From positions 4,342 to 68,341 of the forward strand of contig CALWAZ010000090.1 of the NCBI GenBank assembly GCA_944375725.1: a stretch of 64,000 bases of DNA, written 5' to 3'. The position numbers and the translations under genes are program-made. Shown here piece after piece: positions 55,718-59,183 of the stretch (position 1 is the stretch's first letter; every line of letters begins with the position of its first letter). Under the pieces are notes generated by a model. That model worked only from the letters and a program-made list of their open reading frames with translations, made no database searches and was not told the origin of the DNA. This DNA comes from an uncultured Merdimonas sp. (GTDB lineage: Bacteria; Bacillota; Clostridia; Lachnospirales; Lachnospiraceae).

Positions 55718-56308
55718 ATGAAGGGAATCCGCCTGAAGGGCCGCAATCTGTTTCTGACGCTGTTTTTGACGGGATTTGCCGCAGGCGTGCTGTATATAGC
55801 TCTGTTCGGGAGGGCAGCGGTCCATGAGACGACTCTGATGAGCGCTTATTTTTTCACAAAATACCAGCAGGTGGAGTTTGCCTCTGACGAGCTGTTTCTT
55901 TATACGCTGAAATCCCGGATGTCCGTGTTTACAATCCTGTGGCTGACAGGGCTGACGGTGCTGGGAACCGCCGCGGTCTGCGGGTTTCTGCTCTGGATAG
56001 GGGCCGCGCTGGGGATCACAGTGACCACCGCGGCCATAAAAATGGGGCCGGCGGGTATCCTTCTGTGCGCCGCGGCGGGGCTGCCTCATTTTATCCTCTA
56101 TATTCCGGCCGGTTGCTGGCTGCTGAAAAAAATATCCTCCATGTCCGGCAGCAGGGAATGGCGTACCAGGCAGTGGAATGACGGAAAGCAGGCATTCTGC
56201 CGGTATCTGCTGGTATGGGCTGCGGGCGCCGCGGTATTTCTGGCAGGGGCATTTCTGGAAAGTTATGTAAATCCCATGTTTTTAAAAACGGCTCTGGCAT
56301 TCATATAA
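55718..56308 (+). CDS. spoIIM: Stage II sporulation protein M
   Basis: TM protein with LPH...Y and LESYVNP; upstream of xerD; CATACACT sigma-E-like -10 at 55684. Confidence 0.8.
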   Translation: MKGIRLKGRNLFLTLFLTGFAAGVLYIALFGRAAVHETTLMSAYFFTKYQQVEFASDELFLYTLKSRMSVFTILWLTGLTVLGTAAVCGFLLWIGAALGITVTTAAIKMGPAGILLCAAAGLPHFILYIPAGCWLLKKISSMSGSREWRTRQWNDGKQAFCRYLLVWAAGAAVFLAGAFLESYVNPMFLKTALAFI

Positions 56309-56583
56309 GGGGCTTTCCGATTTTCCGGCCAGGATACGGTAAAAAATTTTTTTATCAATGCTTTACAATATTTGGTGTCCGGAAAAACAGAGGAAACCAT
56401 ATCTTGTGGAATGGCGGGAAACCCCTGATTTTTTCGCAAAATACGGGAAAAAAGACCATTGCTTTTCTGCTTTTTTATTACTATAATGATACATACATCG
56501 GTTATCCGGCGGAGAATCCTGTGCCACAGGATTCTTTTTCAGTGGAGCCGGTATCATTGCGAATCGAGGGGCAGAGGGGTTTT

Positions 56584-57456
56584 ATGGAACAGGAAATTAA
56601 AGGGTTTGTTTCTTACCTGCATAATGTGAAAAAGACATCTCAGAATACGGAGCTTTCCTACAGGAGAGATCTGGTCAAAATGATGCGGTTTCTGCATGAG
56701 CAGAAGATAGACAGGCCGGAGGACGTGACGGAGACAAATCTGAATTCCTATATTCTGGATCTGGAAAAGAAGGGAATGTCTGCGGCGACCGTTTCACGGA
56801 ACATAGCCGCGATGAAGGGGTTTTATCTGTATCTTTGGAAGGAAGGCAGTATTTCCGCGGATCCGGCGGAAAATCTGAAGGCACCGAGAGTAAAGAAGAA
56901 GCTGCCGGATATTCTGTCGGTGGAAGAGATGGCCAGGCTTCTGGAACAGCCGGGAGACCGTACTCCCAAGGGCCTGCGCGACCGGGCCATGCTGGAGCTT
57001 CTGTACGCCACGGGAATCCGGGTGACGGAGCTGGTGTCTCTGCGGCTTGAAGATGTAAACTGGAAGCTGGATTATATTGTGTGCCGGGACAGAAACAGGG
57101 AGCGGATAGTACCCTATGGCTACCGGGCAAGAAAAGCTATGGAAAAATACATGAAAAGCGCCAGACAGGAGCTGATTGGGGATAAGGAATGCGAGATGCT
57201 GTTTCCCAACTGCTCCGGTGAGAGCATGAGCCGCCAGGGATTCTGGAAGCTTCTGAAGCAGTATGTGAAGCAGGCGGGGATCGAGACTGAGATTACGCCC
57301 CACACCCTGCGCCATTCCTTCGCCGCGCATCTGGTGGAGAATGGAGCGGATCTTCATATGGTGCAGGAGATGATGGGACATTCGGATATCTCCACGACCA
57401 TGCTTTACGCCAACCGGGCGCGGGAGATATATGATAAGGCGCATCCGAGAGGATAA
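56584..57456 (+). CDS. xerD: Tyrosine recombinase XerD
   Basis: RDRAMLELLYATGIRV.EL, HTLRHSFA.HL, GHSDISTT..Y; spoIIM-xerD synteny. Confidence 0.9.
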   Translation: MEQEIKGFVSYLHNVKKTSQNTELSYRRDLVKMMRFLHEQKIDRPEDVTETNLNSYILDLEKKGMSAATVSRNIAAMKGFYLYLWKEGSISADPAENLKAPRVKKKLPDILSVEEMARLLEQPGDRTPKGLRDRAMLELLYATGIRVTELVSLRLEDVNWKLDYIVCRDRNRERIVPYGYRARKAMEKYMKSARQELIGDKECEMLFPNCSGESMSRQGFWKLLKQYVKQAGIETEITPHTLRHSFAAHLVENGADLHMVQEMMGHSDISTTMLYANRAREIYDKAHPRG

Positions 57457-57622
57457 AAACAGGGAAAAGGACGGCCGCGGGGCTTTGCTATCCTGTGTTC
57501 GGACACCCCGCAGACGGCCGTATGCTTCCGGACGGACTAAAAAGCAGTCCGCCTGAATCATACGGCCGTCCGCGGAGAGCCGGACACTGGGATAACCAAA
57601 GCCCCGCGGCCTGTACTGTTTT
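57456..57622 (+). repeat. Long imperfect hairpin, copy A
   Basis: Nested stems AAAACAG/CTGTTTT, GGCCGCGGGGCTTT/AAAGCCCCGCGGCC, GACGGCCGTATG/CATACGGCCGTC, CGGACT/AGTCCG. Confidence 0.88.
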
Positions 57623-57814
57623 CGGCTCATATCTTTTTCATTACAGTGAATGCGTCCAGAACCACCCTGCCAAGCTGATAGGAAAGATACGAACCAAAGT
57701 TCGGAATGAGGGACTGATAAGGTGTCAGGATTACCATCCAGTATAGTTTTGATGTTCAATCTGAGATTCATTCCAAAAGTAATAATCTGGAAGCGGCTCC
57801 GGCTGTTATCAGAA

Positions 57815-57998
57815 AAAACATAACGCATGACATAGTACAGACCGCGGCTTTCTTCCGCTGCGGTGTCCGGCTTCCCGCGTACGGCTGTATGATTCAGGCG
57901 GACTGTTTTTGTCCGTCCGGAAGCATACAGCCGTACGTGGGATGTCCGAACACAGGCGGAAGAAAGCCGCGGTCATCTTATGTCACGCGTTATGTTTT
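57815..57998 (-). repeat. Long imperfect hairpin, copy B (inverted homolog of copy A)
   Basis: Stems AAAACATAACGC/GCGTTATGTTTT, GACCGCGGCTTTCTTCCGC/GCGGAAGAAAGCCGCGGTC, CGTACGGCTGTATG/CATACAGCCGTACG; reverse complement aligns to copy A. Confidence 0.88.
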
Positions 57999-59026
57999 CA
58001 GCAGCGCTCAGCTATCTCATACAGCAGTCTCTCGGAATCCTCCCAGCCCAGGCAGGGATCCGTGATGGATTTGCCGTATACATGATCGTGGATTCCCTGG
58101 CAGCCTTCCTCGATATAGCTTTCGATCATGACGCCTTTTACCAGACGGCGGATGTCCTCGGAGTAGGAGCGGCTGTGCAGCACTTCCTTGACGATACGGA
58201 TCTGCTCTTTAAACTGCTTGTTGGAATTGTTGTGGTTTGCGTCTACGATGCAGGCCGGATTCTTCAGCTCTCTGGCGTTGTAGAGGTCCAGAAGATGACG
58301 CAGGTTCTCGTAGTGGTAATTGGGCAGGGATACGCCCCGCTCGTTTACGGCTCCGCGCAGAACGGTGTGGGCCAGGTCATTTCCGGTGGTCTGCACATCC
58401 CAGTTGCGGTAGATGAAGGAATGGCCGTGCTGGGCCGCGTAGACGGAATTCAGCATGACGGTCAGGTCTCCGCTGGTGGGGTTTTTCATTCCGGTGGGCA
58501 CATCGATTCCGCTGGCTACCAGGCGGTGCTGCTGGTTTTCCACGGAACGGGCGCCCACAGCGATATAGGACAGAAAATCCATGACATAGCGCAGATTTTC
58601 CGGGTAAAGCATTTCATCGGCGGCAGTCAGGCCGCTTTCTTCGATGGCCCGGATATGCATATGGCGCAGCGCGATGATGCCGGCCAGAGGATCGGGCTTT
58701 TTCTCAGGATCGGGCTGATGCATGATGCCCTTGTATCCTTCCCCCGTGGTACGGGGTTTGTTTGTGTAAATTCGGGGAATGATCAGAACCTTGTCCTTGA
58801 TTTTTTCCTGTACCGGGACAAGGCGTCTTACGTAATCGCAGACAGCCTCTTCGTTATCGGCCGAACAGGGTCCGATGATAACGAGAAATTTATCAGATTC
58901 ACCGGTAAATACCCTGCGGATTTCCTTATCGCGTTCTTCTTTTATCTTAGCCACATGAGGGGGGACCGGGTAGAGCTCACGGGTCTCCTGAGGTGTGGGC
59001 AGCTTCTGTATGAAATCAAATGCCAT
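57998..59026 (-). CDS. DAHP synthase (class I-alpha, AroF/G/H type)
   Basis: IIGPCS, KPRTT..GYKG, VGARS.E.Q.HR, DANH.NS, GKSITDPC. Confidence 0.93.
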   Translation of the reverse strand: MAFDFIQKLPTPQETRELYPVPPHVAKIKEERDKEIRRVFTGESDKFLVIIGPCSADNEEAVCDYVRRLVPVQEKIKDKVLIIPRIYTNKPRTTGEGYKGIMHQPDPEKKPDPLAGIIALRHMHIRAIEESGLTAADEMLYPENLRYVMDFLSYIAVGARSVENQQHRLVASGIDVPTGMKNPTSGDLTVMLNSVYAAQHGHSFIYRNWDVQTTGNDLAHTVLRGAVNERGVSLPNYHYENLRHLLDLYNARELKNPACIVDANHNNSNKQFKEQIRIVKEVLHSRSYSEDIRRLVKGVMIESYIEEGCQGIHDHVYGKSITDPCLGWEDSERLLYEIAERC

Positions 59027-59183
59027 TTCTCTGTACTCCTTACCTGTTGTATATTTTGTATATATTATAAATGACTCCCACGGCAGGTCTGCGGACCTCC
59101 TGTTCCGAAAACCTACGGTATTTATAATAATACAGGAATCCTGAAAAGTCACGCATATTTTTTGGAAGCACAGAGAATTTATA

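Follow-up and report, generated by a model that had tools for sequence, protein, structure and literature searches.

We analysed a stretch of 64,000 nucleotides (nt) from an uncultured Merdimonas sp. (contig CALWAZ010000090.1; hereafter the window), in which two inverted rod-like hairpins, copy A and copy B, follow the stop codons of two convergent genes for a XerD-like tyrosine recombinase and a DAHP synthase. Copies A and B belong to an uncatalogued, genus-wide family of repeats, which is of the known terminator-like palindromic kind. The most likely role of the family, to which we give slightly better than an even chance, is that of a terminator-associated 3'-end hairpin of selfish origin that is kept palindromic largely at the DNA level. 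An earlier note on the window had described the two hairpins at the gene ends; the folds and open reading frames (ORFs) confirmed both their coordinates and their anatomy. The features of the locus are as follows.

56215..57456, plus strand: XerD-like tyrosine recombinase gene, 413 aa (ORF list; Pfam Phage_integrase 5e-45 and a SAM-like N domain)
57463..57623, plus strand: copy A, the entire rod-like hairpin (fold, sequence, and the head/tail pattern common to other copies)
57469-57472, plus strand: GGAC at the end of the purine-rich head of copy A (sequence)
57473-57483 paired with 57601-57611, plus strand: GC clamp of copy A, which encloses the conserved arms and core
57481..57601, plus strand: conserved body of copy A, 121 nt, from the TTTCTG-like to the CAGAAA-like module (covariance model R1)
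57612-57622, plus strand: tail of copy A, TGT followed by T-rich sequence (sequence)
57624..57813, no strand: inter-copy spacer of about 190 nt with no convincing gene (intergenic comparison across the genus)
57814..57999, minus strand: copy B, the entire rod (fold; inverted repeats)
57815-57834 paired with 57979-57998, minus strand: outer 20-bp stem of copy B, an A-run and a T-run like a two-way terminator (inverted repeats)
57973-57978, minus strand: head of copy B, GATGAC, inside the outer stem (sequence)
57831-57839, minus strand: tail of copy B, TGTACTATG, which lies within the outer stem along with the clamp and body (sequence)
57849..57967, minus strand: conserved body of copy B (covariance model R1)
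57998..59152, minus strand: DAHP synthase gene, the stop codon of which abuts copy B (ORF list; Pfam DAHP_synth_1 2e-42)

The XerD-like ORF stops with TAA at 57454-57456 and copy A comes next downstream; the DAHP synthase ORF, on the minus strand, terminates at 57998-58000. Copy A folds as a single rod of -107.4 kcal/mol (shuffle mean -60.1, z -10.7, none of 200 shuffles as good), and copy B as a single rod of -132.5 kcal/mol on the minus strand (z -17.8). Model R1 scored the body of copy A at 128 bits on the plus strand vs. 67 bits on the minus strand, and that of copy B at 121.5 bits on the minus strand vs. 62.7 bits on the plus strand. Copy A and the reverse complement of copy B share 81% column identity, and the two copies have the same orientation relative to their own genes. 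All compensated differences that had been reported between them were found (GGCC/GGCC vs. GACC/GGTC, GGCCG/CGGCC vs. GGCTG/CAGCC, and CTATCC/GGATAAC vs. TTCCGC/GCGGAA), and the core with its fixed mismatches is indeed identical in A and B. Model and sequence searches of the window detected no copies besides these two.

Extent and anatomy of the repeat family

The window's own genome assembly (G000; 3.0 Mb, 214 contigs) belongs to a Merdimonas-like genus, of which 29 genomes were compared. BLAST and nhmmer detected about 22 copies on 19 contigs of G000; C153:3-134 and C107:1-125 are a single copy that is split over two contig ends. Because the repeat breaks short-read assembly, copy numbers in metagenome-assembled genomes are lower bounds. 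A covariance model (A3, R1) built from 44 copies matched 23 of the 29 genomes. A palindrome matches the model on both strands, so that the copy number is about half the match count, which reached at least 126 two-strand matches in one genome. Counted in this way, there are about 24 copies in G000, about 20 in each of G018 and G041, about 50 in each of G003, G010, G020 and G019, and at least 63 in G016, while the model detected no copies in G007, G005, G001, G013, G015 and G012. The observation that the earlier note said would refute it, that only these two copies exist, was not made: there are about 22 in the genome and hundreds in the genus.

Outside the genus, BLAST gave no match in 299 other genera of Lachnospiraceae, the phage and plasmid collections gave no match to the family, and no contig in IMG/VR matched the core pattern. 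The core pattern was found in only 10 metagenome contigs, one of which is labelled human gut. We concluded that the family is restricted to one genus within the searches made. A scan of Rfam 15 (E up to 10) gave at best 27 bits, for miRNA-precursor models of plants and animals that have gathering scores of at least 83; these matches reflect generic hairpin resemblance only, and the family is multi-copy and unnamed, as had been suspected. On a rough DAHP-synthase tree the family is present in most clades, and G002 and G011 are depleted inside a copy-rich clade; this scattered presence with depletion points to an old origin with repeated loss.

The repeat unit is 130-220 bp long and forms rods in which conserved and copy-specific stems alternate. 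Its outermost part is a purine-rich head, which ends in GGAC in approximately 60% of subfamily 1 copies and in most of the subfamily 2 copies sampled, followed inward by a GC-rich clamp that differs in sequence from copy to copy. Inside the clamp lie a conserved module of TTTCTGTATCC paired with GGATAWCAGAAA and then a second one, TGTGTTCGGAC-A paired with GCCGGACAC, which has a fixed T·G pair and an A bulge. A conserved CGGAC/GTCCG block is flanked on both sides by short variable stems, and the apex is composed of GCTTCCGGACGGAC, an A-rich loop and GTCCGCCTGAATC, with two C·T mismatches and an A bulge. On the 3' side, the mirror-image arm is followed by the clamp complement and a T-rich (T/G-rich) tail that starts with TGT. 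The helix continues into head and tail (AC pairs with GT, and one T is bulged), and A and T tracts beside the rods pair together and become part of them. In a clamp-anchored measure, 15 of 51 copies have at least six T in 12 nt; a separate measure of composition gave a T fraction of 0.36. Subfamily 2 (G016, G010, G020, G003, G019) has the same plan with extra outer stems and an apex that is variable and often expanded, so that its rods measure about 220 nt; on either side of the rod the sense strand is rich in G and poor in C (C 0.10-0.11; L204-L217, L262-L308). Subfamily 2 heads resemble Shine-Dalgarno sequences (AGGAGGGGTGGAC) and its tails are TGGTTTTGGGGG, neither of which is accounted for by palindromy.

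Some copies depart from this plan. A 45-nt side hairpin (CAAGGTGAA-TTGCCGC-nnn-GCGGCAA-GAGAAAGCACCCTGGGGTG) splits the right arm at GCCG|GACAC in the G000 C175 copy (L012:1473-1633), in L014 and in L015, and its mirror image splits the left arm in L141, L147:2830-2985 and L148; the G018 orthologue of the C175 copy has no such hairpin. At G000 C211:1900-2030, the core is entirely replaced by the two halves of the side-hairpin module, as though two palindromes borne on the arms had recombined and the centre had been lost. A copy on G004 C1 (L164:1950-2080) ends exactly at the apex and is joined to unrelated DNA that opens with a short hairpin (AATCCCCTTGTCAATCGAGGGGATT), which may reflect insertion or rearrangement at the hairpin tip.

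Pairing, covariation and strand symmetry

For pairing statistics, a rod of 59 pairs was drawn on 48 copies. In this rod 84.8% of cells are paired, compared to 73.8% in shuffles (none of 500 reached the observed value) and at most 44% with the partners slid. Changes on both sides were seen in 42 of the 59 pairs, and 358 cells are doubly changed vs. 131 expected. The covariation is real and far beyond chance. In orthologous copies, the flanking genes of which are only about 85% identical, the clamps and outer modules can be wholly different in sequence and are still paired. For closely related copies we relied on only four clean G000-G044 ortholog pairs (about 5% divergence), since indel misalignment inflates the other substitution counts; these four contain five double changes that restore Watson-Crick pairing vs. 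approximately 0.3 expected. Such an excess would be expected if the arms of a DNA palindrome are corrected against each other, or if selection is very strong.

The two strands of the rods behave alike. The mean difference between sense and antisense folds is -0.18 kcal/mol (the sense fold is the better one in 27 copies and the antisense fold in 21), and G·U pairs number 190 on the sense strand vs. 196 on the antisense strand. An arm-against-arm alignment of 72 copies gave 174 G·U vs. 156 A·C. Covarying pairs go from U-A to C-G with almost no G·U intermediates, and the conserved blocks sit in the stems, while the apical loop varies or expands. Equal folding of the strands, similar G·U and A·C counts, the rarity of G·U intermediates and conservation in stems together argue against selection on the sense RNA alone. 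The strand signature expected of a structured 3'-untranslated region (3'-UTR) RNA, one of two readings offered by the earlier note, is thus absent.

Gene ends, terminators and decay

The tabulation of orientation and stop-codon distance that the earlier note had called for gave a consistent picture across the family. In subfamily 1 the upstream gene is co-oriented with the element in 43 of 52 copies, and between tandem genes there are 20 sense and 4 antisense copies; in G016 (subfamily 2), 18 of 24 copies are co-oriented with the upstream gene and 6 of 24 lie on the opposite strand. These counts depend on a home-made codon-usage gene caller trained on G000 and include many orthologues, so that independent events are fewer than they suggest. 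An element between convergent genes is, almost without exception, closer to the one that shares its orientation. Model hits mostly start 17-30 nt from the stop codon, and the rod itself begins a few nt past the stop; overall, units follow the stop codon of the co-oriented gene at a distance of between a few and about 30 nt. Convergent pairs of one plus and one minus copy, separated by a few hundred nt up to 1.8 kb, are seen in the window, at C175, C106 and C159, and at four sites in relatives. Pairs only a few hundred nt apart rule out replication strand as the determinant of orientation. The genes around and between copies are ordinary (response regulator, CAAX protease, PhoU-like protein, aldolase, enolase, MarR). 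A transposase between the members of convergent pairs was considered and rejected, the genes there being a CAAX protease, a MarR regulator, or none.

Strong sense orientation and stop-codon docking are what a cis-acting structured 3'-UTR RNA would show, and we consider this alternative in its fullest form: a dedicated factor would recognise the GGAC/GUCC duplex blocks, the Y·Y mismatches and the bulges, and would set 3'-end formation or mRNA stability. Candidate factors might be a double-stranded RNA-binding protein, RNase III or a termination factor, by analogy with what was speculated for the tuberculosis Rho-independent terminator motif (TRIT), whose authors proposed a factor for a double-stranded RNA motif (PMC3152330). 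An RNA module would also be consistent with the head and tail asymmetry outside the palindrome, the C-poor sense-strand flanks, a sense-strand model score of about twice the antisense score, unpaired nucleotides that are fixed across subfamilies, and orthologous sites that persist with stems paired despite replaced sequences. We nevertheless think it rather unlikely, because there is no wobble asymmetry, both strands are equally stable and G·U intermediates are rare, and because conservation sits in the stems with an apical loop free to vary or expand. In addition, the side-hairpin variants are mirrored in either arm, antisense copies occur (the 4 of 24 in tandem context in subfamily 1 and the 6 of 24 in G016), and copies are readily lost within the genus.

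The relation of the rods to ordinary terminators can be followed at orthologous sites. Where the xerD/DAHP locus has no copy (G023, G007, G017, G043, G021, G012, G005), a canonical GC stem with a T-run stands right after xerD. In G002 only the clamp and the outermost modules remain at the A site, and at the C106 site there is a 35-bp hairpin made of the clamp, TTTCTGTATCC and TGTGTCCGG, then a T-run. The G011 terminator looks normal; its stem starts with GGACGACC, which resembles GGACGGCC of copy A, and GGAC with a clamp-like stem is kept. In G044 the interior of copy B is lost and the outer A-run/T-run stem retained. These decay products in G002, G011 and G044 link the rod and the ordinary-terminator states. 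Loss by deletion was seen at C152, where G000 lost its copy between TAAG repeats. We rejected, as a general rule, the idea that the clamp is the stem of a pre-existing host terminator entered by the element: the conserved GGAC head and TGT tail are external to the clamp, which is itself common to young paralogues. Some sites do show insertion into a hairpin tip.

The terminator-associated hairpin that we favour would work as follows. The unit would be transcribed as the 3' end of its gene, where it could act as, or embed, an intrinsic terminator and a 3' protective hairpin. The spread of the family, as DNA, is probably ancient and would often have been into hairpin tips that already existed; the family would now be mostly inherited vertically and lost through internal deletion. 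The arms may be kept complementary mainly by DNA-level arm-to-arm correction together with selection for the hairpin, and selection on one RNA strand is probably not the main cause.

Several points weigh against this proposal, in addition to the limits of the placement counts given above. Several copies have no T-run directly after the rod; the C141 copy has none and is followed by a separate canonical terminator downstream, which indicates that some copies at least are 3'-UTR passengers and not the terminator itself. (A simple terminator scanner is blind to the rods owing to its loop limit.) The fixed mismatches, the bulged A, the bulged T at the base and the conserved blocks exceed the needs of termination, which supports the earlier claim that the structure is maintained well beyond them, and the conserved blocks and fixed mismatches suggest recognition by a protein. 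In the 72-copy arm alignment, C·T mismatches number 248 vs. 145 A·G. The family model scores the sense strand about twofold higher than the antisense strand, and head, tail and flank composition are strand-specific; these features, the excess of C·T mismatches and an orientation that follows the gene all argue against a purely symmetric DNA object. A pure DNA palindrome leaves unexplained why the core orientation follows the gene and why the sense-strand flanks are C-poor, and we could not fully reconcile the signs of symmetric DNA with the strand-specific signs.

A more speculative proposal, which we hold only tentatively and regard as unlikely, is that the rods are a lineage-specific, sequence-recognised 3'-end system, in which a host factor binds the GGAC/GUCC blocks and bulges of the sense hairpin and governs termination or 3' processing of dozens of unrelated genes. 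The hairpin bound would be RNA or exposed non-template DNA, and the factor possibly also docks new copies at stop codons. If true, such a system could account for the bias in orientation, for the lack of symmetry between head and tail and for flanks that are poor in C.

Mobility, partner enzymes and related repeats

Most copies in G018, G041, G014, G004 and G044 occupy sites orthologous to G000 copies, and there are no near-identical paralogues in G000 or G016; the family is on these grounds mostly old and vertically inherited. Past mobility has left several traces. In G014 and G004 the apex of an older, degenerate copy contains a complete unit. In one spacer, the G014 copy is sense and abuts the stop codon, while G018, G041 and a remnant in G000 have an antisense copy farther downstream inside a host hairpin; these copies of opposite orientation are independent insertions. 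The C102 site is filled in G044 and G041 and empty in G000, and where it is filled the copy has on either side a 15-nt direct repeat, which on its own forms a small hairpin; no direct repeat could be defined at other sites. The clamp as target duplication of a palindromic target fits C102 and does not fit typical copies such as C187, so this explanation was set aside. A young subfamily in G010, G020 and G019 has at least three loci with identical outer 55 nt, the similarity starting exactly at GGAC and taking in some 15 nt of the GT-rich tail. Directly 5' of the GGAC head of a young copy, at G010 C40 (L209) and at G019 C142 (L308), the left end of the element is partly repeated in tandem (GGATGCAAAATAAGTTGGTAGAAC, or TAAGGCGGAC twice).

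The earlier note's other reading was a REP/PATE-like substrate mobilised in trans by an HUH/RAYT enzyme or a reverse transcriptase. In this alternative, a single-strand DNA hairpin (REP/REPIN-, PATE- or attC-like) would be cut and moved by an enzyme specific for one folded strand, with the GGAC head and the bulged-T foot as its recognition features, and whichever strand is exposed would set the orientation. The conserved GGAC lies immediately 5' of the palindrome like the GTAG of REPs, the shared sequence of young paralogues begins exactly there, insertions adjoin other GGAC motifs and hairpin tips, and the conserved extrahelical bases recall attC and IS608 ends. No partner enzyme, however, tracks the copies. 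PF01797 (IS200/RAYT Y1 HUH transposase) had no match in seven copy-rich genomes, namely G000, G018 (97% complete), G014, G004 and G044, which are the element-rich genomes of the window's own clade, and G016 and G009. It matched 16 of the 29 genus genomes in a manner unrelated to copy number, including copy-free G007, and at nine Y1 loci inspected, which include those in G020, G003, G024 and G019, no rod was present within about 2 kb. The HUH/RAYT partner was rejected for these reasons, and the reverse transcriptase partner because PF00078 does not track the family either. Furthermore, no autonomous element bounded by rods was seen, the genes between rod pairs are ordinary, the close plus/minus pairs oppose an orientation set by the replication strand, and most copies are old and unique. 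We consider this single-strand substrate quite unlikely.

Comparison with known systems led to the same broad class of repeat. In Proteobacteria, REP, BIME and REPIN repeats form imperfect extragenic palindromes at the ends of genes. Their 5' tetranucleotide is conserved, their hairpins are maintained by compensatory changes and they persist vertically for long periods; REP/BIME repeats have known effects on mRNA stability and termination. The present family is likewise a multi-copy extragenic palindrome, but its head is GGAC instead of GTAG, its unit is 3-5 times the length of a REP, and membership of a REPIN-RAYT system fails because the element-rich genomes have no RAYT/Y1 gene. ERIC/IRU and Correia (NEMIS) repeats also form rods, 100-155 bp in length; they are transcribed together with the genes beside them and affect mRNA processing in a manner that depends on their orientation. 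They have defined terminal inverted repeats and a TA target duplication, whereas the ends of the present family are asymmetric (GGAC head, TGT tail). As regards miniature inverted-repeat transposable elements, the whole unit is an inverted repeat with asymmetric outermost ends, and a single 15-nt direct repeat occurs at one polymorphic site; no insertion sequence with ends matching the repeat was seen in a search that was not exhaustive. The family differs from IS200/IS605-derived PATEs in that Y1 is absent from the element-rich genomes and the Y1 loci have no family members. It differs from integron attC sites in that copies are dispersed singly among housekeeping genes on many contigs, or in convergent pairs; the conserved part lies at the centre with the variable part outside it, opposite to the arrangement in attC (no search for IntI was made).

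The closest published analogues are SPRITE and TRIT, with REP/BIME/REPIN and ERIC/Correia as the broader kind. SPRITE, described in pneumococci in 2011, is a small interspersed hairpin repeat of one species group, in which a long duplex is followed by a U-rich tract; it lies near the 3' ends of coding sequences and is enriched between convergent genes, no target-site duplication or insertion-sequence partner was identified, and its authors proposed co-option as a terminator (PMC3049150). TRIT is a conserved palindromic terminator-like motif of mycobacteria with about 147 copies, a very narrow distribution of positions relative to stop codons and restriction to one genus; its authors inferred possible recognition of the duplex by additional machinery (Gardner et al., 2011; PMC3152330). 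The present family has the features of the SPRITE/TRIT kind, a hairpin with a T-rich tail, docking at 3' ends of coding sequences and restriction to a single lineage, which defines a functional kind and not homology; neither SPRITE nor TRIT has a known mobilising enzyme. Like SPRITE, it is a lineage-restricted hairpin repeat of Firmicutes close to the 3' ends of coding sequences. SPRITE has about 30 copies and an AT-rich sequence with a duplex of 18 bp, whereas the present rods are GC-rich, 60-110 bp and carry fixed mismatches; the two show no sequence similarity by eye, no formal homology test having been made. TRIT is short, mostly bidirectional and overlaps the end of the coding sequence, whereas the present family is much longer, modular, for the most part gene-oriented and begins after the stop.

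Interspersed gene-end palindromes have been studied well in Proteobacteria, pneumococci and mycobacteria, but there is hardly any description of them from the gut-dominating Clostridia. The copies of the present family run to dozens in each genome, and about 29 species offer many orthologous sites, with clear intermediates of gain, loss and decay; this makes the family a good natural data set. It bears on the birth of terminators from selfish palindromes and their replacement by them, on how the arms of long palindromes are kept matching, and on why elements follow gene orientation. If it is not masked or modelled, the family will be mis-called as novel small RNAs, riboswitches or CRISPR-like repeats in gut metagenomes.

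Copies A and B bracket a spacer that varies in length, being 190 nt here, about 280 nt in G018 (L170, an apparent remnant) and about 1 kb in G041 (L173), and a tyrosine recombinase gene is adjacent. One could propose from this that A and B are the inverted ends of one mobile cassette of the pdif-module or IMEX type handled by the XerD-like recombinase, and other convergent pairs do bracket 0.2-1.8 kb. We judge this highly improbable: about 50 other copies are not beside recombinases, both members of a pair simply stand behind their respective convergent genes, copy A alone is present at the locus in G014 and G004, and no dif-like core is evident. The spacer is probably a small gene decaying between convergent genes and not the cargo of a mobile unit. 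The open frame in the G041 spacer is alpha/beta-hydrolase-like by eye only. As for the "xerD" gene, about 125 residues precede the SAM-like domain of its product and 413 aa looks long for XerD; given this length, the gene may encode a different tyrosine recombinase.

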